45,600 nt of DNA from Candidatus Saccharimonadales bacterium (GTDB lineage: Bacteria; Patescibacteriota; Saccharimonadia; Saccharimonadales; UBA10212), in the NCBI GenBank assembly GCA_036507655.1, contig DATCIS010000011.1, positions 1-45,600 of the forward strand, given 5' to 3'. The position numbers were made by a program, and so were the translations under genes. Shown here one piece after another: positions 2,020 to 31,268 of this stretch; positions within the stretch are counted from its first letter, which is position 1, and every line of letters begins with the position of its first letter. Under the pieces are notes generated by a model that was given only the letters and a program-made list of their open reading frames with translations, searched no databases and was not told where the DNA came from.

Positions 2020-2514
2020 ATGAAACCCATCCAGCGTGAATATCTACGCAGTACAATTTTCGGGATAGAAGACAGTTTAGTATCGACCACCGGGCTGATA
2101 GCCGGGCTTAGCGTCGGTGCTGACAGCCGAAGGATAGTTCTACTTGGTGGTGTTGTGGCTATTATGGTCGAGGCGGTTTCGATGGGCGCTGGTGAATATC
2201 TGAGTGATGACGCCGTGGCCGAGCTTGATAAAATTAAGCGCCATCGTGATAGCCCCTTAGTTAGCGGTTCTATAATGTTAATTTCCTATTTACTGGCCGG
2301 TTTTTTACCTTTAGCGCCTGTCATATTCATTAGCTACCCTGGTTCTGTATGGTATAGCGTAATCCTAGCATTAGTCGGCCTTTTTCTCCTAGGTTTTCTT
2401 AAGGGTAAATTGCTTCATACCAGCCCGTTCCGCGGTGGCCTGAAAATCTTAATTGTCGGTGGGCTGGCTACGGCCTTTGGGTTAGTCGTGGGATCTGTCT
2501 TCAAGCTGCAATGA
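2020..2514 (+). CDS. VIT1/CCC1-family iron/manganese transporter-like membrane protein
   Basis: ORF track. The segment GIEDSLVSTTGLIAGLSVG and the C-terminal TM helices are typical of the VIT family. TATAAT at 2005-2010 lies only 9 nt before the ATG, so the mRNA may be near-leaderless. Confidence 0.75.
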   Translation: MKPIQREYLRSTIFGIEDSLVSTTGLIAGLSVGADSRRIVLLGGVVAIMVEAVSMGAGEYLSDDAVAELDKIKRHRDSPLVSGSIMLISYLLAGFLPLAPVIFISYPGSVWYSVILALVGLFLLGFLKGKLLHTSPFRGGLKILIVGGLATAFGLVVGSVFKLQ

Positions 2515-4160: not shown

Positions 4161-4814
4161 TTATTTGGATGCTTGTTTAGACTGATTTTTACGCCATTCT
4201 TCTATTTGGGCGTGGTGGCCGGACAGCAACACCTGAGGGACTTTCATTCCCTGGAATTCTTCAGGCCGGGTATACTGTGGATACTCAACTACGCCGGCTT
4301 GGCTGAAACTCTCGCGCTCAGCACTGGTTTCGCCGCCCAACACTCCCGGGATTAAACGCGTCACAGCATCGATTACCACCATCGCCGGAAGCTCGCCACC
4401 TGTTAAAACGTATTCGCCGATGGAGAATTGTTTATCAACTACGGAGGTGGTGCGTTCGTCATAGCCCTCATAGCGACCGCAAATAATAATCAGGCCGGCT
4501 TCGGTGGATGCGAATTCGCGAGCTATTTTCTGATTAAACAGCTCTCCTCGGGGTGTCATTAACAAAACGTGTGCTCCGGGGTCGGTTTTTTTGGCTTTCT
4601 CAACGGCCGCAAACAGCGGTTCGGGTTTGAGCACCATGCCATCCCCGCCCCCATAAGGTGTATCGTCGACCTGTTTTCTTGGCCCAAGGCCAAAGTCACG
4701 CAGATTTATCAGTTCATATTCAACCAGTTTTTTTTCCTGCGCCTTCCATAGCATGCTGGCATTCAGCACCCCCTCAAATATCTCCGGAAACAAAGTTATA
4801 ACCTTGATTTTCAT
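4161..4814 (-). CDS. trmD: tRNA (guanine37-N1)-methyltransferase
   Basis: ORF track. Contains MKIKVITLFPEIF, DDTPYGGGDGMV and GRYEGYDER, and sits in the conserved rpsP-KH-trmD order. Confidence 0.95.
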   Translation of the reverse strand: MKIKVITLFPEIFEGVLNASMLWKAQEKKLVEYELINLRDFGLGPRKQVDDTPYGGGDGMVLKPEPLFAAVEKAKKTDPGAHVLLMTPRGELFNQKIAREFASTEAGLIIICGRYEGYDERTTSVVDKQFSIGEYVLTGGELPAMVVIDAVTRLIPGVLGGETSAERESFSQAGVVEYPQYTRPEEFQGMKVPQVLLSGHHAQIEEWRKNQSKQASK

Positions 4815-12066: not shown

Positions 12067-12144
12067 GGGGGCATTGGCGCAGTTGGCTAGCGCGCATCCA
12101 TGGCATGGATGAGGTCAAGGGTTCGAATCCCTTATGCTCCACCA
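12067..12144 (+). tRNA. tRNA-Ala (anticodon GGC), CCA encoded
   Basis: GGGGGCA..CATCC ATGGCAT GGATG..GGGTTCGAATCCC..TGCTCC A CCA. It has the G3:U70 alanine identity pair and an A32/U38 anticodon loop. Confidence 0.9.
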
Positions 12145-12152
12145 TTTTATTA

Positions 12153-14147
12153 CTAGAGTGAGATTTTTCTTAGCAATTGGGCGTTGAGGGCGACGATAAT
12201 CGTCGAAAGAGACATAAAGACCGCTCCTAGAGCCGGGACTAGCAGAATCCCTGATCTGTAAAGAACGCCGGCGGCCAGAGGGATAGCAACCACGTTATAG
12301 CCAGTTGCCCAAGCCAGATTTTGCTTCATCTTTGAATAGGTAGCTTTCGAAAGTTTGATGACTTTGACTACGTCTCGCGGGTCGCTTTTGACCAGTATGA
12401 TATCGGCCGATTTTATAGCCACGTCCGTGCCGGCGCCGATTGCCAAACCAATATTTGCCTGGGTCAAAGCCGGAGCGTCATTAATACCATCACCCACCAT
12501 GGCAACGCTTTCGCCACTGGCTTGCAGTTGTTTGACCTTAGATGCCTTATCTTCGGGCTTAACCTCGGCAAAGAACTGATCCAAACCTAGTTGCTTAGCA
12601 ACATAAGCAGCCACATCTTCGGAATCGCCGGTTATCATGGCAGTCTTGATGCCCATTTTCTTCAGTGACGCGACCACAGTCGGGGACTCTTCGCGGATTA
12701 TGTCAGCCAATGCCAAAGCACCTATTACCTTTTTATCGGCAATCAGATAAACTTCGGTTTTACCGTCTTGGGCCGCCTTTTTAATCTGGTTTCTGATTTC
12801 GGTTGGGACATCAATTTTGTTGTCTTCGATATAGCGGTAGCTGGCTGCAATGTAAGTAGTCCCTTCGATTTCGCCCTTTACACCTATGCCCGGCAGGGCT
12901 TTAAAATTAACAAATTTGCTGGTTTTTAGTTTTTGCTCCTGGGCTTTTTTAACAATCCCCTTACCGACGATATGTTCACTGTTTTGCTCCAAGCTGGCAG
13001 CCAGGCGCAATATTTCGCTTTCCTTGAAGCCGTCAGTTGCCCAAATATCTGTTACGCCATGCTCGCCTCTGGTTAAAGTGCCAGTTTTATCAAAAAGCAC
13101 CCAATCAAGGTTGCGGGCTGACTCAAGAGCTAATCTTTTTCTTATAAGCAACCCATTACGAGCAGAAAGAGTAGTAGAAATTGATACCACTAATGGCACG
13201 GCTAGTCCCAAAGCATGCGGGCAAGCAATAATCAGTACAGTGACGGTACGTTCCAGGGCAAAGTCGGTGTCACGGGCCAAAATCCAAACCAAAAAAGTCA
13301 GCAAACCGACAGCGATAGCCACAACAGTCAGTACAAAAGCCGCTTTATCGGCTAAAACCTGGACATTTGATTTGGAAGCTTGAGCCTCGGCTACCAGACG
13401 CATGATGCCCGCCAGAGCAGTATCATCGCCTATCTTGGTAACTTTTACGGTCAGAGAACCGTCCTGATTAATAGTGCCGGCCACTACCTCACCATTAGCT
13501 GACTTATTCACCGGCTTGGATTCGCCGGTTATGGCAGCTTCATTGACTGATGATGTGCCTTCGGTGATTACACCATCCACCGGAATAGCGGCACCCGGGC
13601 GAATTAGTACCAAATCATTACTTTTAAGCTCACTGACCAACACCGTCCGGGGCTGGCCGTTAACCAATTTCTCGGCTTTATCGGGCAGCAATTTGGCGAT
13701 GGCATCAAGTGCGCTCTCAGCTCTTTTTATCGAAGCCATTTCTAACCAGTGGCCCAGAAGCATGATAGTAATCAGTGTGGAAAGCTCCCAAAAGAAACCT
13801 TCACCGGAAATTGCGAACTCAGTCGCCAGGCTGTAAAAATAGGCGACGCTAATGGCCATGGCGATTAACGTCATCATACCTGGTAGCCTGTCTTTTAGCT
13901 CACGCCAAGCGCCTTGAATGAACACCATACCGCCGTAGAAAAAGATAATGGTGCTAAAAACCAGAGGTATGTATTTTGACCCGGTAAAACTTGGCGCCGT
14001 TATGTTCAACCAACCCTGAACGCTCTCGGAGTAGAGTAAAACAGGTACTGTTAGCAGTAAACTTGCCCAGAAGCGGTTGCGGAACATCTCTATCGAATGC
14101 CCGGCGTGTTTGTCGTAGTCTTGATTCCCGTGGTAATGATCTTTCAA
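12153..14147 (-). CDS. copB: P1B-type heavy-metal (copper) ATPase, CopB-like
   Basis: ORF track. Contains the DKTGTLT phosphorylation site, a CPH motif in the TM helix (IIACPHALGL), GDGINDAP, and a His-rich N-terminus (HYHGNQDYDKHAGH) in place of an HMA domain. Confidence 0.9.
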   Translation of the reverse strand: MKDHYHGNQDYDKHAGHSIEMFRNRFWASLLLTVPVLLYSESVQGWLNITAPSFTGSKYIPLVFSTIIFFYGGMVFIQGAWRELKDRLPGMMTLIAMAISVAYFYSLATEFAISGEGFFWELSTLITIMLLGHWLEMASIKRAESALDAIAKLLPDKAEKLVNGQPRTVLVSELKSNDLVLIRPGAAIPVDGVITEGTSSVNEAAITGESKPVNKSANGEVVAGTINQDGSLTVKVTKIGDDTALAGIMRLVAEAQASKSNVQVLADKAAFVLTVVAIAVGLLTFLVWILARDTDFALERTVTVLIIACPHALGLAVPLVVSISTTLSARNGLLIRKRLALESARNLDWVLFDKTGTLTRGEHGVTDIWATDGFKESEILRLAASLEQNSEHIVGKGIVKKAQEQKLKTSKFVNFKALPGIGVKGEIEGTTYIAASYRYIEDNKIDVPTEIRNQIKKAAQDGKTEVYLIADKKVIGALALADIIREESPTVVASLKKMGIKTAMITGDSEDVAAYVAKQLGLDQFFAEVKPEDKASKVKQLQASGESVAMVGDGINDAPALTQANIGLAIGAGTDVAIKSADIILVKSDPRDVVKVIKLSKATYSKMKQNLAWATGYNVVAIPLAAGVLYRSGILLVPALGAVFMSLSTIIVALNAQLLRKISL

Positions 14148-14190
14148 GTGGCTTCTCTGCTCCGCCTATAAAACAGTTGCTTAATGCTTA

Positions 14191-14442
14191 TTACTTGTAG
14201 GACAAGTCTTTTATTAGTTGATCAAATTCCTTTTTACTAATCTCGCCCTTGGCGTATCTGTTTTTAGCTATGGCCAAACTATCTTCGCCCTCACCTTGTT
14301 TACCGAACCCTCCCGAGACTCCCCGAATCACTAGAACTACAACCGCTATTACGACCAGTGCCCATATTACCATCATTAGCAGTCCCCACCCCCAATCTGT
14401 GGCACCCATGTGGAAACCGTCGTTAAAGTGCGCTGAATACAT
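14191..14442 (-). CDS. SHOCT-domain small membrane protein
   Basis: ORF track. One TM helix plus a C-terminal AKNRYAKGEISKKEFDQLIKDL segment (SHOCT-like). Confidence 0.7.
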   Translation of the reverse strand: MYSAHFNDGFHMGATDWGWGLLMMVIWALVVIAVVVLVIRGVSGGFGKQGEGEDSLAIAKNRYAKGEISKKEFDQLIKDLSYK

Positions 14443-14454
14443 ATTGCCTCCTTA

Positions 14455-14727
14455 TTATTTTCCTTGCTTGCTAAAAATCCCAAGACTCCAGCCTAACACG
14501 TAACCTACGACCCAAAAAGAAACAACCAGCGTAATACCGCCACCAATGAAGTTACCCCAACTTAAGTTGAAGTCGCCAAGACTATCGATGTTCATTCCAT
14601 GCAGCCACCATTTGGTGACTTTGAAAGAAAAGTCGGGGAAGATTACGACAAATGCTGAACATAGGGTCCAGAGGACCGCCGTTGCCAGAGCCAAAGAACT
14701 GGCGAGTTTATTTTTTGTCAGTTTCAC
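14455..14727 (-). CDS. Small membrane protein of the metal operon (possibly DUF5676-like)
   Basis: ORF track. Two or three hydrophobic segments. Lies between the regulator and the ATPase, and its start overlaps the regulator's stop by 4 nt. Family name is uncertain. Confidence 0.6.
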   Translation of the reverse strand: MKLTKNKLASSLALATAVLWTLCSAFVVIFPDFSFKVTKWWLHGMNIDSLGDFNLSWGNFIGGGITLVVSFWVVGYVLGWSLGIFSKQGK

Positions 14728-15215
14728 GCTTTTATAACCTCCTTTAATTCTTTTACATAGCGATTGGGGTTAGAAGCAAATTTATCTTTGCAGCCGCTGG
14801 CGCAGAAGTAATAGGTTTGGCCGCCGTATTTGGTCGTATCGAAAACTTCGGATGCGCTCAGCCGCATGCCACATACGACGTCTTGAACAATCGGAAAAAG
14901 ATATTTCGCTGGGAATTCCTCAGAAAAACCATGCTGGCTTTGCAGAAACTGATAAATCATTCCAACAGCTTTGGTTATTTTGTTGTCTGCCAAAGAGTAG
15001 AAGGCCTTTTGACCCTCACGGTCGACCCTGACCAATTTATATTGCCTAAGAAGAGTCAGGTGCTGCGATAAATTTGGTTGGCGTAAGCCGAGCATTTCAA
15101 CCATTTCATTAACGCTCAGGCGCCGATTTTTAAGCAGCTGTAGTATCTCCAGACGCTTACGGTTAGCCAAAACTTTAAAGGTCTCCTCCTCTAAATTCAT
15201 GATCCTCTGATACAT
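14724..15215 (-). CDS. ArsR/SmtB-family metalloregulator fused to a C-terminal YHS/TRASH metal-binding domain
   Basis: ORF track. wHTH region LANRKRLEILQLL..SVNEMVEMLGLRQPNLSQHL. C-terminal region VVCGMRL..YYFCASGCKDKFASNP. Confidence 0.85.
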   Translation of the reverse strand: MYQRIMNLEEETFKVLANRKRLEILQLLKNRRLSVNEMVEMLGLRQPNLSQHLTLLRQYKLVRVDREGQKAFYSLADNKITKAVGMIYQFLQSQHGFSEEFPAKYLFPIVQDVVCGMRLSASEVFDTTKYGGQTYYFCASGCKDKFASNPNRYVKELKEVIKA

Positions 15216-26458: not shown

Positions 26459-26505
26459 TTGAGTTTGTATCTGTTAGGCAGTATAATTGTATCTGTTCTC
26501 AGCAC

Positions 26506-26538
26506 AAAAACGCAACATTAGTAACGAGTTGCGTTTTT
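26506..26538. terminator. Conserved terminator-like hairpin X1 (A5-stem-loop-stem-T5)
   Basis: AAAAACGCAAC / GTTGCGTTTTT, an 11-bp stem, followed by GAGAGGAG. Its arms match X2 at 27117-27148. It lies downstream of a TATAAT at 26492-26497 and upstream of tRNA-Leu. Confidence 0.6.
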
Positions 26539-26632
26539 GAGAGGAGGAAGCGACCTGAGGCTGTAAGTACTTTTACTTGATCGAGTGGTAGGGTTGTAAA
26601 AAGTATGGAAGCCGACACGTCGATTCCGACGA

Positions 26633-27077: not shown

Positions 27078-27116
27078 ACCCCGGGAAAATTTGGTATAAT
27101 TACCCCTGTTCTTAAC

Positions 27117-27148
27117 AAAAACGCAAGATCTGGTCGAGTTGCGTTTTT
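27117..27148. terminator. Conserved terminator-like hairpin X2
   Basis: AAAAACGCAA / TTGCGTTTTT followed by GAGAGGAG. It has the same arms as X1 with a different loop, and lies between TGGTATAAT and tRNA-Gly. Confidence 0.6.
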
Positions 27149-27233
27149 GAGAGGAGCGACATAGCACTAAGCCGAAGCTTTTGGCTTTAGACCCATCAAA
27201 GACAAAACGAGGCGAGCGCGTTAGTCGCGACGA

Positions 27234-27310
27234 GCGGGTGTAGCTCAGTTGTTTAGAGCGCTTCCTTGCCAAGGAAGAGGTCGAGAGTTAGAGTCTCTTC
27301 ACCCGCACCA
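27234..27310 (+). tRNA. tRNA-Gly (anticodon GCC), CCA encoded, atypical D- and T-loops
   Basis: GCGGGTG TAGCTC AGTTGTTTA GAGC G CTTCC TTGCCAA GGAAG AGGTC GAGAG TTAGAGT CTCTT CACCCGC A CCA. Confidence 0.8.
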
Positions 27311-27379
27311 TTTCAACCCAAACGTTTTTCAAACAATTGAGGTCAGTTCCTGTCTTATGCAATCAACGAGTTAATTAAA

Positions 27380-27934
27380 ATGAATACCTATGTGATACTT
27401 ATGCGCGGCATTAATGTTGGCGGAAAAAACAAAATACCAATGGCAGAACTAAAGCTGTTTCTTGAAGAACGGGGTTTTAGTAATGTCATCACATATATTC
27501 AGAGCGGAAACGTGATGTTGGCGTCCGACAAACCCGCTGACAAGATTAAAGCCCAAATTGAAGCTACTCTGACTAAAAGCTTCAAACTTGATAGCGAACT
27601 CATCAAAGTTTTGGTTTTGAGCCGTAAACAGTTTCAGGCCGTCATTGATCACAAGCCCAAAGGCTTCGGTGAACAGCCAGAGAAGTACCACAGCGATGTC
27701 ATCTTTTTGATGGATATTGATTCGGCTCAGGCTATGCCCATATTCGCTCCCCGAGAGGGAGTCGACACAGTCTGGCCTGGCGATGGCGTCATCTACTCGC
27801 AACGTCTCAGTGCCCTACGAACCAAAAGCCGGTTGAACAAAGTTATGACATCACCGCTCTACAAGTCTATGACTATTCGCAGCTGGAGCACGACAACAAA
27901 GCTATTAAAACTACTTGAAGAGCAGCTCGGCTGA
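27380..27934 (+). CDS. DUF1697-family protein
   Basis: ORF track. The N-terminus YVILMRGINVGGKNKIPMAELKLFLEERGFSNVITYIQSGNV is typical of DUF1697. Confidence 0.8.
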   Translation: MNTYVILMRGINVGGKNKIPMAELKLFLEERGFSNVITYIQSGNVMLASDKPADKIKAQIEATLTKSFKLDSELIKVLVLSRKQFQAVIDHKPKGFGEQPEKYHSDVIFLMDIDSAQAMPIFAPREGVDTVWPGDGVIYSQRLSALRTKSRLNKVMTSPLYKSMTIRSWSTTTKLLKLLEEQLG

Positions 27935-27992
27935 CAAATTGAAAGCTTTCACTAAATAGTTCAACTTTTGATTACCATATTGCTCAATAGCC

Positions 27993-28024
27993 GATGTTTG
28001 AAATGCGTCAACGATGCCGCACCA
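27993..28024 (+). repeat. GCACCA-terminated structured motif, copy R1
   Basis: GATGTTTGAAATGCGTCAACGATGCCGCACCA. Matches R2 at 28 of 32 positions. Confidence 0.7.
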
Positions 28025-28154
28025 TTATAGTTGCCTTCCAGTAAGCCTTTTAGGGGAGAATTTCACAGACAAAACCTGAGTTAAAGATTATGTAAAACAT
28101 GTTTTAAGTTTTACACTTACTAAAGATGTAACTCTAATGAAAGGGGTAAATGAA

Positions 28155-28541
28155 ATGGCGAAATATATTGATGGATTTGTGCTTATAGTGCCCAAAGGCA
28201 AGGAAGATGATTACAAGAAAATGGCGGAAGAGGGGCGGGATACATGGATGAGGCATGGTGCGCTTGAATACTTTGAATGCAGAGGCGATGATCTCAAACA
28301 ACAGGAAATGGGTGAGGAAAAATCACGAGCTTTTGCCGAAATGGCGGGCGCAAAAAGTGACGAAAACGTATGGTTTTCCTTTATTGTTTTTAACTCCAAG
28401 CAACACCGCGATGAAGTAAACAAAAAGGTGATGGATGAAATGGATGAAAAGTATAAAGATAAAGACCAAAGTGATTTTTCAATGCCGTTTGACATGAAGA
28501 GGATGGCATATGGAGGATTTGAGGTGGCGGTTGAAGGATGA
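28155..28541 (+). CDS. DUF1428-family protein
   Basis: The track ORF starts at 28137. The ATG at 28155 has AAAGGGG upstream. YIDGFVLIVPKGKEDDYKKMAEEGRDTWMRHGALEYFECRGDDL is typical of DUF1428. Confidence 0.8.
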   Translation: MAKYIDGFVLIVPKGKEDDYKKMAEEGRDTWMRHGALEYFECRGDDLKQQEMGEEKSRAFAEMAGAKSDENVWFSFIVFNSKQHRDEVNKKVMDEMDEKYKDKDQSDFSMPFDMKRMAYGGFEVAVEG

Positions 28542-28672
28542 AAGATCAAAAAATAGTTTCAAGTCCTTGATTAGATCCTAAACACAAGACACTAAGCCGG
28601 CTTCAAGTATTAAGTAAGTCGCCTGATAATCCGAATAACTCAACCAGGCGCTTTAGTTTATAATCTGTTATA

Positions 28673-28716
28673 GCAGCGATAGCTGACGTTTGAAATGCGT
28701 CAACTATGTTGCACCA
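28673..28716 (+). repeat. GCACCA-terminated structured motif, copy R2 (full hairpin)
   Basis: GCAGC G ATAG CT GACGT TTGAAAT GCGTC AA CTAT GTTGC ACCA. It forms three stacked helices and a 7-nt loop. Confidence 0.7.
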
Positions 28717-28796
28717 ATTCAACCCAAACGATACTTCAACCGGGAGCTTTCTAACATTTGGGGTCATTAAGGCCTCTTTTTGTTATAGTTAGATTA

Positions 28797-29066
28797 ATGA
28801 GTTTTGAGCAATTTGATGATAAAGAAAAAGAACACGAAGGCGAAAAATACTTACGCTTACTTGGACTCGGACATTTGGCTGACCGTAAGATAGCAACAGC
28901 TAGCGGTACAATACAGGCCAGAGACTTTTTAGATATTTGTGGTGAGCATGCCCGGCCGATACTTGTTGGTTTTGAGACAATGAGCCCCAATGACCCAAGA
29001 TACGGAGACACAAAAAACGCTTTGCGTAGCTTTGTTGGACAATACATAGAGGGGAGACAATCCTAG
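28797..29066 (+). CDS. Hypothetical protein (89 aa), no family recognised
   Basis: The track ORF starts at TTG 28758. The first ATG is at 28797 (MSFEQFDDKEKEHEGEKYLRLLGLGHL). No clear Shine-Dalgarno. Confidence 0.5.
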   Translation: MSFEQFDDKEKEHEGEKYLRLLGLGHLADRKIATASGTIQARDFLDICGEHARPILVGFETMSPNDPRYGDTKNALRSFVGQYIEGRQS

Positions 29067-29092
29067 CCAATAAAAACAGTTAGGTGGGCAAG

Positions 29093-30748
29093 ATGAGTGA
29101 TAATGAAACCTTGATAGCACCTGCCCAAACTGATGCTATTGGTATGCCACCAGCAGAAGCAAGCTATACCTATCAGCGGGCCGATGGAACAGTTGAGCGA
29201 GCATTTAGTGCAGAAGACGCAATTGCCCGCTGCCCTGTGCTTGGTAGACTAGCAATAGAAGCACCTGAGCAGGTTAATACTCTCTTGGAATTAGCGGCAC
29301 TAGGTAAAGAGAAAATAGAGAAAGAAAATAAAGAAGAGCCAGATAAGCCTAAGCTTGAAGAAAAGATAGAAGTTGAGCAAGAGCCTAAAACGAACGAGCC
29401 TAAAAAACAAATTACGGATACCAATACGGAGCGTACTGTCAAACCAGAGCCAGTCTTAGAAATCCAAGAGCACTCTTACGTTGAGCAAGGACTAGCCACA
29501 AAACCTGTCAATACAGCCACAAATCATCAGGCAGAGCCAATAATGAAGCAGGCTCAATCTGAAGTAACTCAAAGAGATGTAAAGGAAACGATTGAGCAAA
29601 CGTCTAATGTGACCCCTTTGGCCACACAGGGTGAAAAAACTGAAATAAGCCCGTCGACGACACAGCCACAAGTAATTGTTAAAAACACAGATAGAAGGAC
29701 AATAGTTGACCGCCCAGAACAAACTGATGCTTTTAGCCATCAGCAGCAATACGAGACCGATGCAGTAAAACCTGTGGTAGCCGAACTAGAGATTGTCAAA
29801 AGCTCAACTATCAGAGAACCTGAACCAGAGATAGTGCTCGCATCTGATAGCAACGATACCCTGAATGAAAGCTATGACGAGTCCGCTGACCTAGAGGGTG
29901 CAATTGTGGCTATGCCTGAAACCGAGCCAACTATCGCTGAGGCTGACTTCATAGACGAAGATTACCCTAGAAGCGAGCTTGACCTAGCGCCTCACGAATT
30001 AATAATTGAAAATGAACCAGAGATGGCAGATATGCAACAAAAGACCGAAGCTTATATAGATGAACAGCTTAGAGCATTATTTGAGCCTGAGACGGTTGAG
30101 ACATACAAGGAATTGCTTGCTTTGACAGCTGCTAACCAAGAAGGAGAGCCGTCTGTTTTTGAAGAAGCCACCATTGTTGGGCCTGTGCTAGAAGCTGATG
30201 CAGAGACAGCAACTCCATCAGACTTTGAAGCCTTTGTCGCCACACAACCAATTAGTGAAGAACCTGTAACTTTAGAGGCTATTCAGGAAGAAGCTAACGA
30301 GCAGCCGCTGGAGCAAACTTTAGTGCAGTTGGTTGAATTATTATCAGGAGCTCCTGAAAAAGCAGATGCTGAGACTGAAGAGAACAAGCTGTATGCAATT
30401 TTGCAGGGAATAGAAGATGCAATGCCCGCTTGTTATATAGGGCAAGAAGCCGCAGAAACAAAACCACGCATTACAGCTGAAATGACCGAGAAATTACTTA
30501 GGCTGTTGCGTGCATTGGGTTATGAAAACCCGAAAGAAGTTTTGGTTTCATTTGTAGCCAGATTTGACTTAGCATTTTTGCTGCAAACATTAAAGTATTT
30601 GTGCCAGCTAAATAATGAGCATAACAGGCAGGAGTTTTTAGCGGTTTTCTCTACCTTTCCAGCAAATGATGATGACGATACACGGCTACGAATAGGAAAA
30701 ATGCTTTTTGGCCTTATTGCTAAGCTCTCTCCTGAACCGAGTGTTTAA
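29093..30748 (+). CDS. Hypothetical large acidic protein (~551 aa) with a long low-complexity E/P/T/Q-rich centre
   Basis: The track ORF starts at GTG 29084. The ATG at 29093 has AGGTGG 6 nt upstream. The N-terminal ~75 aa and C-terminal ~130 aa look ordered. No family recognised. Confidence 0.65.
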   Translation: MSDNETLIAPAQTDAIGMPPAEASYTYQRADGTVERAFSAEDAIARCPVLGRLAIEAPEQVNTLLELAALGKEKIEKENKEEPDKPKLEEKIEVEQEPKTNEPKKQITDTNTERTVKPEPVLEIQEHSYVEQGLATKPVNTATNHQAEPIMKQAQSEVTQRDVKETIEQTSNVTPLATQGEKTEISPSTTQPQVIVKNTDRRTIVDRPEQTDAFSHQQQYETDAVKPVVAELEIVKSSTIREPEPEIVLASDSNDTLNESYDESADLEGAIVAMPETEPTIAEADFIDEDYPRSELDLAPHELIIENEPEMADMQQKTEAYIDEQLRALFEPETVETYKELLALTAANQEGEPSVFEEATIVGPVLEADAETATPSDFEAFVATQPISEEPVTLEAIQEEANEQPLEQTLVQLVELLSGAPEKADAETEENKLYAILQGIEDAMPACYIGQEAAETKPRITAEMTEKLLRLLRALGYENPKEVLVSFVARFDLAFLLQTLKYLCQLNNEHNRQEFLAVFSTFPANDDDDTRLRIGKMLFGLIAKLSPEPSV

Positions 30749-30852
30749 AACCAGTGGTTGAAAAATTCAATCAGGCATCAAGCAGGTTGCCCGATAAGTT
30801 AAACACCTCAGCAAGGTGTTTTAGTTTATAATCATTATTAGCGGTGAGGGAT

Positions 30853-30884
30853 GACGTTTGAAATGCGTAAACTATCCTGCACCA
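30853..30884 (+). repeat. GCACCA-terminated structured motif, copy R3
   Basis: GACGTTTGAAATGCGTAAACTATCCTGCACCA. Matches R2 at 29 of 32 positions. Similarity to R2 extends about 70 nt further upstream and includes TTTAGTTTATAATC. Confidence 0.7.
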
Positions 30885-30885
30885 A

Positions 30886-30915
30886 AAAAATTCCCAACCA
30901 AGGTCGGGAATTTTT
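30886..30915. terminator. Bidirectional intrinsic terminator
   Basis: AAAAATTCCC aaccaaggtc GGGAATTTTT. It sits between the convergent 29093-30748 (plus) and 30940-31083 (minus) genes. Confidence 0.7.
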
Positions 30916-30939: not shown

Positions 30940-31083
30940 TTAGCGGCGACGTAGACCGGGCAAGTCAGAAACTTTGGCTTCCCCAGTAATCAGGGCAACA
31001 GCCACGCCCGTTATAACTAGTGCGGCTGCGACCATCATCAAAAATAGGCCGAGAGCTACGGGTGAACCCCAAGTCCATTCCAT
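30940..31083 (-). CDS. Small hydrophobic protein (47 aa, single TM)
   Basis: Below the ORF-track cutoff, so I translated it myself: MEWTWGSPVALGLFLMMVAAALVITGVAVALITGEAKVSDLPGLRRR. Strong AAAGGAGGA Shine-Dalgarno 4-5 nt upstream. A terminator follows downstream. Confidence 0.55.
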   Translation of the reverse strand: MEWTWGSPVALGLFLMMVAAALVITGVAVALITGEAKVSDLPGLRRR

Positions 31084-31193: not shown

Positions 31194-31268
31194 GGCACCG
31201 TGGCCGAGGAATTAGGCAAAGGTCTGCAAAACCTTTTTACGCGGGTGTAAATCCCGTCGGTGCCTCCA
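31194..31268 (+). tRNA. tRNA-Cys (anticodon GCA), CCA encoded, non-canonical T-loop
   Basis: GGCACCG..AAGGT CTGCAAA ACCTT..GCGGG TGTAAAT CCCGT CGGTGCC T CCA. It has discriminator U73. TATAAT lies at 31174-31179. Confidence 0.8.

Follow-up and report, generated by a model that had tools for sequence, protein, structure and literature searches.

A probable site-specific cassette array between tRNA-Gly(GCC) and tRNA-Cys in a Saccharimonadales genome

The stretch of DNA analysed here, referred to as the window, comprises positions 1 to 45,600 of contig DATCIS010000011.1 (assembly GCA_036507655.1) from a Candidatus Saccharimonadales bacterium. Its place among the Saccharibacteria is borne out by its LeuRS, all named homologs of which come from Candidatus Saccharibacteria, Saccharimonadales or Patescibacteria. 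The source samples are listed as ENA ERZ27254795 and ERZ27254865 and as SRR3989293 and SRR3989296. Between the genes for tRNA-Gly(GCC) (27234-27310, plus strand; ARAGORN and Rfam) and tRNA-Cys (31194-31268; tRNA calls), it carries a series of small cargo genes that very likely form a site-specific cassette array. Three cassettes, termed A, B and C, follow the tRNA-Gly gene on the plus strand. Each is closed by a copy of a repeat of about 115 nt, the right end (RE), which lies just 3' of a cargo gene and ends in GCACCA. The same six bases end the tRNA-Gly gene (27305-27310) and are the anchor common to every RE. Repeat finding and alignment delimited the ~115 nt common to two of the three copies. 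All three are confined to the interval between tRNA-Gly and tRNA-Cys and none is located elsewhere in the 45.6-kb window. The GC content of the array is 42.5%, versus 48.1% in the rest of the window.

Cassette A (27311-28024, plus strand) consists of a partial left end (LE), a DUF1697 gene (27380-27934) and RE1 (27911-28024, plus strand). Its left end, LE_A (TTTCAACCCAAACGTTTTTCAAACA; 27311-27337, plus strand), is found directly 3' of the tRNA and corresponds to positions 2-27 of the LE profile in nhmmer. The minus strand of LE_A reads as a decayed N-terminal piece (..KTFGLK/WCG, then stop), and that of RE1, which ends in GCACCA, encodes WCGIVDAFQTSAIEQYGNQKLNYLVKAFNLSAELLFK followed by a stop codon. 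RE1 is an orphan tail in the sense that a stop codon stands immediately before the W. Cassette B (28025-28716, plus strand) contains a DUF1428 gene (28155-28541) and RE2 (28604-28716, plus strand). Cassette C (28717-30884, plus strand) begins with a full left end, LE_C (28717-28790, plus strand; LE profile positions 1-74 in nhmmer), and continues with an open reading frame (ORF) of 89 amino acids (aa) (28797-29066), an acidic ORF of 551 aa (29093-30748) and RE3 (30767-30884, plus strand). Neither ORF of cassette C has a Pfam match; the 551-aa protein (29093-30745) is very acidic, of low complexity and rich in E, P, T and A. RE3 is an orphan tail with no start codon and adjoins the native downstream flank. 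There, a bidirectional terminator hairpin (AAAAATTCCCAACC/GGTCGGGAATTTTT; 30886-30915, found as an inverted repeat and by folding) probably represents the original flank of tRNA-Gly, and is followed by a convergent gene for a 47-aa membrane protein (30940-31083, minus strand).

An earlier note on this DNA had described a 20-nt direct repeat, GCACCATTTCAACCCAAACG at 27305-27324 and GCACCAATTCAACCCAAACG at 28711-28730, that brackets the DUF1697 and DUF1428 genes, and had read it as the trace of one two-gene island inserted at the tRNA. The repeat is real (identity 19/20). It has two copies only, with no further match in the window at ≤3 mismatches, and two matches were obtained in 0 of 100 dinucleotide-preserving shuffles. 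The two enclosed genes are as annotated there (Pfam). The assignment of the 20-mer to the tRNA 3' end holds for its first six bases, GCACCA (discriminator base plus CCA); the other 14 nt are flank and form the conserved start of an LE. What had been overlooked is that the second copy (the last 6 nt of RE2 and the 14 nt beyond) marks the 3' end of the ~115-nt repeat, which is present three times. The 20-mer therefore merely reflects the comparison of the junction of tRNA-Gly with LE_A and the junction of RE2 with LE_C. Because an internal junction (28024/28025) separates the DUF1697 from the DUF1428 gene and an external one is located at 30884, beyond the bracketed coordinates of the earlier note, the single island bracketed by a duplicated tRNA segment is contradicted in favor of three cassettes, each closed by an RE. 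The more general claims of the note stand, namely a footprint of site-specific recombination at the tRNA-Gly 3' end, an insertion hotspot in the interval up to tRNA-Cys, and the absence of the mobilising enzyme from the window. Pfam scans of plausible ORFs (≥120 aa; short and overlapping mechanical ORFs were left out) identified no integrase, recombinase or transposase domain in the window and turned up only the housekeeping protein RuvX, and a tblastn search of the window with related serine recombinases gave no match. No empty site was observed within the strain: all four contigs with an identical DUF1697 protein keep the same arrangement.

The RE has the form ...GTTTGAAATGCGTCAAC-N6-GCACCA. 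The pattern GTTTGAAATGCGTNAACN6GCACCA was matched exactly in 112 public metagenome stretches from many habitats, and an exact scan of viral contigs (IMG/VR) with this pattern gave no match. Loci on these and other related contigs are designated by L-numbers (L087, L124, L178 etc.), near-complete contigs among the RE carriers are Ga0207667_10000003 (823 kb) and Ga0209930_1000028 (979 kb), and counts based on profiles, 142 RE and 36 LE matches, cover the 112 loci plus the window. The earlier note had considered that the 20-mer might be a common repeat unrelated to tRNA-Gly. The motif is indeed common and widely distributed; its association, however, is specifically with tRNA-Gly(GCC).

The minus strand of the RE is protein-coding. 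Every copy encodes WC-x-IVDAFQT[SA]AI-x-A-x-x-DYKLKHL[AV]E-x-F-x-LSG-x-L[IL] with a stop after 35-37 codons, and the ~100 nt upstream of the RE core, common to the REs at 75-95% identity, vary in a codon pattern. The ratio of nonsynonymous to synonymous polymorphism (pN/pS) is 0.41 and equal in all contexts, at a pS of 0.75 that is near saturation; the peptide thus appears to be under purifying selection. A start codon upstream of WC is missing in most copies, and several, including RE1, have a stop codon directly before WC. Among the copies that were not selected by the exact pattern, GCACCA is kept in 18 of the 21 that reach the profile end, and the synonymous positions of the core are fixed, whereas third positions further upstream vary freely. 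The last ~30 nt of the RE thus seem to be constrained at the DNA level besides the coding constraint. A second RE variant is found at L143:5100-5238. It has the same GCACCA end, the WC start and a length of 37 codons, is followed by a normal LE, carries an unrelated tail (WCSNWVKVYTKLLMKSRVGVKYLQYLIRSTCLPLLIK and stop) and was not caught by the RE profile.

The secondary structure of the RE is not conserved. RE2 forms a hairpin of 15 bp that leaves the ACCA tail unpaired (z = -3.5), RE1 barely folds and RE3 does so in a different register. Among 99 distinct copies, the hairpin pairs in 77.6% of cells compared to 76.2% in shuffles, and its two variable pairs are mostly unpaired. Alifold gave no consensus fold and weak covariation, and the Rfam search of the window returned ten tRNAs only and no RE match. 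Two structural candidates were rejected. A tRNA-like minihelix RNA does not agree with the unfolded RE1, the missing Rfam match and alifold consensus, and the coding opposite strand. For an integron attC site, the R''/L''/L'/R' boxes (RYYYAAC ... GTTRRRY) are not visible on either strand of the RE and the structure is unconserved.

The LE begins with ATWCGACCCAAACG..., and at a subset of junctions the DNA after GCACCA reads ATWCGACCCAAACGWTTTTSAAACAGTATAGTTTCWAACA. The conserved stretch is followed by a hairpin, a T-run and an extended -10 element resembling TGTTATAGT, 6-8 nt before the ATG of the cargo gene. The stem of the hairpin covaries across loci (compensatory substitutions). In LE_C, the conserved 40 nt precede a terminator-like hairpin (28760-28776) with a T-run (terminator scan), and the extended -10 element TGTTATAGT at 28781-28789 is located 7 nt upstream of the cargo ATG (28797). 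Terminator and promoter of the LE are predicted to be active. Read on the minus strand, the LE contributes a Shine-Dalgarno sequence and an ATG, followed by 17 codons that continue into the RE, so that RE/LE junctions carry an ORF of 52-54 aa. In the window, such a junction ORF of 54 aa spans RE2 and LE_C (28603-28767, minus strand) and is called by gene callers. Its Shine-Dalgarno sequence (AAAGAGG), ATG and 17 codons derive from LE_C and its tail of 37 aa from RE2; the protein reads MTPNVRKLPVEVSFGLN up to the junction and WCNIVDAFQT...LLNT beyond it, up to the stop. Pfam and NCBIfam have no match to the 54-aa protein, and a set of 5.8 billion proteins contains only five called homologs. Its AlphaFold model comprises two helices with a pLDDT of 55, too poor for a fold search.

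The related loci point to GCACCA as the site of insertion. Every RE or LE match is oriented as tRNA-Gly(GCC), which is located upstream on the same strand in 20 loci, and tRNA-Cys or tRNA-Leu(TAA) is found downstream of the arrays. Examples are L196 (tRNA-Gly/LE-RE-RE...Cys), L194 (RE/LE-RE/LE) and L163. Clustering of the 60 nt 3' of each junction revealed the LE after tRNA-Gly in 4 loci and after an RE in 15. Another conserved flank, AATGTTTGAATTATGAGCCGAAAGGCTC..., is found 3' of tRNA-Gly in 7 loci and 3' of an RE in 5; it represents the C-terminal coding region of a type 1 large serine recombinase (LSR) gene, as described below, and is termed the LSR flank. All four junction classes are hence present (tRNA-Gly/LE, tRNA-Gly/LSR flank, RE/LE and RE/LSR flank), with a common core of 6-9 nt. 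A full set of attP × attB junctions with a short core is typical of serine-recombinase elements, in which attP and attB are the two attachment (att) sites.

Empty and occupied sites can be compared directly. In L178, a single 550-nt unit of LE, DUF4440 gene and RE is found exactly between the GCACCA of tRNA-Gly and the LSR flank, and in L124, L130, L131, L142, L166, L167 and L181 tRNA-Gly is joined to the LSR flank without a cassette; occupied and empty loci are 86-89% identical in the tRNA and 79-84% identical in the flank. The 550-nt DUF4440 cassette is 79-85% identical from end to end in L087, L161 and L178, and the DNA on either side is unrelated; in L087 and L161 it sits behind other REs. 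Similarly, positions 28129-28717 of the window (cassette B) are 90% identical in nucleotide sequence to L198 and L199, and the homology stops at the last base of GCACCA. Both loci carry the DUF1428 gene and RE without DUF1697, in a gene neighborhood very different from that of the window. In L194, an RE is followed by the LE of its own cassette, identical over 96 nt up to the contig end, as expected of a tandem dimer or a co-assembled circle. A similar junction of an RE with the LE of the same cassette is found in L140.

In total, 43 cassettes could be delimited, 0.39-6.4 kb in length (median about 0.94 kb) and all in one orientation. LE-type cassettes contain one ORF that starts ~80 nt past GCACCA. 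The cargo families are almost all singletons and include DUF4440, DUF1905, aldo-keto reductase, DNA-alkylation repair and glyoxalase/bleomycin resistance proteins, an MFS transporter, a type III restriction-modification pair and a P-type ATPase with DUF305. No recombinase is encoded among the cargo of the delimited cassettes. The DUF1428 protein of cassette B (28155-28541) has thousands of homologs at 82-93% identity, some of which (L198, L199, L200 and L202) are located beside GGDEF/HisKA signalling genes and ISL3 transposase fragments at 33-48% GC. These contexts suggest that this small gene may be widely spread by horizontal transfer.

The recombinases found at the junctions are LSRs. A batch Pfam scan of 150 representative neighboring ORFs from the 112 loci gave Resolvase matches. 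Phage_integrase and the Y1 transposase were not among the 25 families listed of the 146 matched, so a single Phage_integrase match could be hidden. An iterative search identified LSRs in 11 loci. The genes are encoded on the minus strand directly right of the GCACCA junction, with 3' ends that cross it, and belong to two subfamilies. In searches with tail-less queries, LSR genes or fragments directly adjoin 10 of the 20 tRNA-Gly junctions and 11 of the 137 RE junctions. Type 1 combines the domains Resolvase, Recombinase and Zn_ribbon_recom, all three of which are present in L102 and L124; complete three-domain recombinases thus adjoin the att site in related loci but not in the window. Beside tRNA-Gly, the type 1 ORF ends with ...SNIWCG and a stop codon inside the tRNA gene (L124, L130). 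Beside an RE, it reads in frame through the RE and gains a C-terminal tail of 35 aa (L102, L101, L195, L111, L178 and L199). Type 2 (for example in L191) ends either with ...LVQHS and stop, 14 nt inside the RE, or with ...MVRVTGL and stop inside the tRNA. Accordingly, the RE is best interpreted as a 3' part split off the recombinase ORF, with the crossover falling within the reading frame. The arrays of L178, L143, L130 and L163 combine LE cassettes with LSRs.

Several further observations concern these enzymes. In eight loci, the type 1 LSR beside tRNA-Gly is cut to the same C-terminal fragment of ~104 aa (query positions ~392-495, 73-91% identical), which may go back to a single inherited deletion or represent a small protein that was retained; the fragment loci named for the flank to the right of tRNA-Gly are L124, L130, L131, L142, L163, L166, L167, L181 and L108. 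A third LSR of 600 aa is encoded at L163:567-2366 (plus strand), and its 3' end overlaps a convergent tRNA-Val gene (2326-2402, minus strand). Recombinases of this group may in general have a 3' end that crosses the end of a tRNA gene. An LSR scan of viral contigs gave one match, itself a junction of tRNA-Gly with an LSR fragment. This contig, L197 (IMGVR_UViG_3300007368_000289:1-600), is filed as viral and starts with tRNA-Gly joined to a type 1 fragment, beside tRNA-Phe and tRNA-Gly(CCC), and may be either a genuine element or Saccharibacteria DNA that was misclassified. A blastn search with an RE/LE junction against GenBank phages gave no match. A viral origin of the RE was rejected on the exact IMG/VR scan, the unmatched junction and the nature of this single LSR match.

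Taken together, these data can be explained with reasonable confidence by an array of three cassettes at GCACCA that is driven by an LSR, and on balance the LSRs seem to be the enzymes that move the cassettes. Each cassette would be inserted by site-specific recombination at the GCACCA that ends tRNA-Gly(GCC). A site composed of tRNA-Gly or an RE, GCACCA and a flank would recombine with the RE-GCACCA-LE junction of a circular cassette, with tRNA-Gly/LE as the left and RE/old flank as the right product, and repeated rounds would result in a one-directional array. Both the catalysis by the LSR and the circular intermediates are proposed on the basis of sequence comparison. As the LSR frame would cross the crossover site, the detached 3' end would appear as an in-frame 35-aa tail where an RE is located beside a type 1 LSR, as a 54-aa protein where it is located beside an LE, and as an orphan elsewhere. 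The tail or the 54-aa protein may have a regulatory role. Because no recombinase domain is found in the window, its cassettes would be moved by an LSR acting in trans, or the array would now be frozen. The segment 27311-28716 would be one of several excisable units. The predicted circle junctions are RE1/LE_A, RE2/LE_A, RE3/LE_C and RE3/LE_A, and the predicted excision scars are tRNA-Gly/LE_C, tRNA-Gly/AAAAAATTCCC and RE1/LE_C.

A number of points weigh against this explanation. Cassette B has no LE, and its left end is neither LE nor LSR flank. An empty-site close relative of this genome was not recovered. The evidence that links the LSRs to the cassettes is adjacency only: 126 of the 137 RE junctions are not beside an LSR, and there is none in the window. 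Many of the LSR copies beside tRNA-Gly are the ~104-aa fragments, and many arrays may be inactive. The clear dyad symmetry expected of a serine-integrase attP was not found around GCACCA; a dyad axis on the middle C scores 0.37 versus a background of ~0.25 and is matched by other axes. Canonical serine integrases pair attP with attB and no other sites, and tandem insertion at an attL-like tRNA-Gly/LE junction would need a relaxed site choice or an accessory factor.

Some of these points would be accounted for if the cassettes were recombined by a different enzyme, for instance an Xer- or IntI-type tyrosine recombinase, whose gene is located elsewhere, and the LSRs belonged to separate elements at the same hotspot. 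The many RE junctions without an adjoining LSR, the missing attP-type dyad symmetry and the use of the same tRNA by different elements, exemplified by the partial tRNA-Gly 3' copy in L200, agree with such an enzyme. It is nevertheless considered unlikely, since the 3' ends of two LSR subfamilies cross exactly GCACCA, with type 1 continuing in frame into the RE, Phage_integrase is not among the families listed, and the RE has neither attC consensus boxes nor a covarying hairpin. Slightly less credence still is given to reshuffling without any dedicated recombinase. Saccharibacteria are thought to be naturally competent, and if RE and LE were a repeated small gene, RecA-dependent exchange after DNA uptake could rearrange the loci, with the tRNA-Gly junctions arising from rare microhomology. 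The ~100 nt of RE identity would suffice for homologous exchange, and a peptide under purifying selection is gene-like. However, tRNA-Gly and RE share only 6-9 nt, and yet the exact register recurs in many independent lineages with both flank types; cassette homology starts and stops exactly at GCACCA; and most REs have no start codon and hence are not free-standing genes.

The remaining explanations fit fewer of the observations. That the DUF1697 and DUF1428 genes were brought in together by a classical integrase, with the 20-mer as attL/attR core, is suggested by a 19/20 direct repeat that includes the tRNA 3' end and encloses both genes, but appears very improbable: the tRNA part amounts to 6 nt, the remainder is an LE that is seen after many REs and tRNA-Gly genes elsewhere, RE junctions are located between the two genes and outside the repeat, and DUF1428 with its RE is found on its own in L198 and L199. 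Classical islands have a repeat of 15-50 nt of the tRNA 3' part and an integrase inside, adjoining the att site; here, neither the T-arm nor the acceptor stem is repeated, and the window encodes no such enzyme. A similarly low probability is assigned to single-strand transposition by an HUH enzyme of the Y1 family, in which non-autonomous elements like those of IS200/IS605 or palindrome-associated transposable elements (PATEs) would insert 3' of GCACCA via subterminal hairpins. Oriented insertion beside a short target equal to the last 6 nt of the element, without target duplication or terminal inverted repeats, would be in line with it, as would the hairpins of RE2 and LE. Still, the RE hairpin lacks covariation support and barely forms in RE1, the LE hairpin resembles an ordinary terminator with a T-run, and the Y1 transposase is missing from the families listed. 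The least probable of all is that the REs act as RNA, as tRNA-like acceptor/T-arm minihelices that end in ACCA-3' and serve as processing sites of the cargo transcripts. The stacked helix of RE2 with its free ACCA tail and the tRNA-derived six bases at the end of all copies fit this idea; a covariance-model match or a conserved covarying structure was not found for the RE, and the opposite strand is protein-coding with synonymous variation.

A full-text literature search found no description of this cassette system. The nearest concept are the tycheposons of Prochlorococcus, integrase-driven cargo elements at specific tRNA genes of a streamlined genome, in which successive insertions push older elements inward and leave degraded integrases and att remnants behind, with niche-related cargo (Hackl et al., bioRxiv 10.1101/2020.12.28.424599). 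Tyrosine recombinases are present in 910 of 937 tycheposons and large serine recombinases in a minority, the flanks are partial tRNA copies of ~40 nt, and replication modules and a cargo of several kb are usual (10.1101/2020.12.28.424599). Both systems are tRNA-targeted cargo elements whose islands are built by successive insertion. In contrast to tycheposons, the core here is 6 nt, the cassettes are mostly of a single gene and 0.4-2 kb with conserved LE and RE, and the recombinase frame crosses the site. Integrase and replication genes are absent from the cassettes of the window and from the LE-type cassettes, and there are no partial tRNA copies.

Integrons consist of a tyrosine recombinase (IntI), an attI site and attC sites that are conserved by fold and not by sequence, and their promoterless cassettes are driven by the Pc promoter. 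Clusters of attC sites without an integrase are known as CALINs. The arrays described here resemble both in that they are one-directional, compact and mostly of single ORFs, with very diverse accessory cargo, a fixed anchor and a recombination site per cassette; both share glyoxalase/bleomycin resistance, DNA repair and DUF cargo, and the arrays often have no recombinase nearby. attC boxes or the attC hairpin were not found, nor was IntI, with none in the window and Phage_integrase absent from the 25 families listed. Unlike in integrons, the array is anchored at the 3' end of a tRNA gene, the right ends show sequence conservation and code for a peptide, the cassettes appear to come with a terminator and promoter of their own, and a serine recombinase is the enzyme associated with them.

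Further parallels are found among integrative elements. Cis-mobilizable elements (CIMEs) and integrative and mobilizable elements (IMEs) beside integrative and conjugative elements (ICEs) such as ICESt1 and ICESt3 of Streptococcus are integrase-less and att-bounded, accrete in tandem and are mobilised by the recombinase of a related element. Integrase-less elements likewise pile up in tandem at the integration site here. CIMEs and IMEs, however, use tyrosine integrases, are kb-scale ICE-derived elements and are not known to have their att site within the recombinase ORF or to form families of single-gene expression cassettes. An att site within an ORF is known from the partitioned integrase of SSV1-type Sulfolobus viruses and from the integration-dependent immunity of mycobacteriophages, with attP in the repressor gene. 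As in these cases, the crossover is located in coding sequence, the C-terminus is changed by integration or excision, and a detached 3' fragment is found at the far end. Whereas those cases concern tyrosine integrases and whole viruses, it is an LSR frame here whose last ~35 codons are swapped, and the same tail can be a separate 54-aa protein. In Tn4451 and Tn4453, which are moved by the large resolvase TnpX, the joint of the circle creates a promoter for tnpX (Tn4451). These are also LSR elements in which end-joining in the circle creates a functional expression signal; the joint described here differs in that it completes an ORF (tail or small protein), and in that a tRNA end with cassette arrays serves as target. 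Overall, the feature is interpreted as a novel variation on site-specific integrative elements, organised much like an integron.

A more far-reaching and tentative proposal is that the system is a serine-recombinase counterpart of the integron in Saccharibacteria, in which the DNA arrangement sets the C-terminus of the LSR and the 54-aa protein is a directionality factor. The CCA end of tRNA-Gly(GCC) would be a gene-capture platform, to which single-gene cassettes bring a terminator and a leaderless promoter. Each recombination would rewrite the C-terminus of the LSR, tail-less at the tRNA and with the 35-aa tail at an RE, and the 54-aa protein, made only at an RE/LE junction in a circle or tandem, would be a built-in directionality or regulatory factor. 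The arrangement of the DNA would thereby tell the enzyme whether to integrate or to excise.

The genomes of Saccharibacteria and other Patescibacteria are tiny, the cells rely on host bacteria and their genetic manipulation is very difficult; how they gain and lose accessory genes is still little understood. A widespread system of precisely delimited cassettes at one tRNA gene, if confirmed, would account for part of their flexible gene content, with restriction-modification, metal efflux, detoxification and DNA repair as relevant cargo. It would also extend the integron principle of one anchor and many small cassettes to another recombinase class and a new phylum. If the change of the C-terminus is functional, it would constitute a new mode of control for serine-integrase directionality. 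A serine recombinase with a short, defined target in a conserved tRNA gene, together with compact natural expression cassettes (terminator, extended -10 element and leaderless start), would offer the development of genetic tools for these bacteria an obvious starting point.

Some observations relate to tRNA-Gly(GCC) and the surrounding genes. In L200 (937-kb contig; 4336-4560), a partial copy of the T-arm and acceptor end of the tRNA itself, GAGTTTAGAGTCTCCTTGCCCGCAC, is located ~100 nt downstream of tRNA-Gly(GCC), and an accessory-gene island that includes DUF1428 is found downstream of this duplication, which is of the classical att type and derives from a different kind of element at the same tRNA. 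The T-loop of tRNA-Gly(GCC) is unusual, GTTAGAGTC (27279-27300; also in L178 and L200), as opposed to GTTCGAATC or GTTCAAGTC in the other tRNAs of the window. A convergent pair of genes for a P-type ATPase and an ArsR/YHS regulator is encoded at 12068-15215 beside tRNA-Ala(GGC), where no RE or LE was found; metal-efflux cargo of this kind is the commonest large ORF family near tRNA-Gly arrays (14 loci). For the ABC-transporter substrate-binding protein encoded in the flank (599 aa, SBP_bac_5), the best match is only 34% identical, and synteny in species-representative genomes was uninformative. A repeat of ~43 nt is found at 26504-26546 and 27115-27156, ~85 nt upstream of tRNA-Leu(GAG) and tRNA-Gly(GCC), respectively. 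It contains the exact 22-mer CGAGTTGCGTTTTTGAGAGGAG and a perfect 12-bp hairpin (CAAAAACGCAAC/GTTGCGTTTTTG), and could be a common promoter or regulatory module of both tRNA transcription units.

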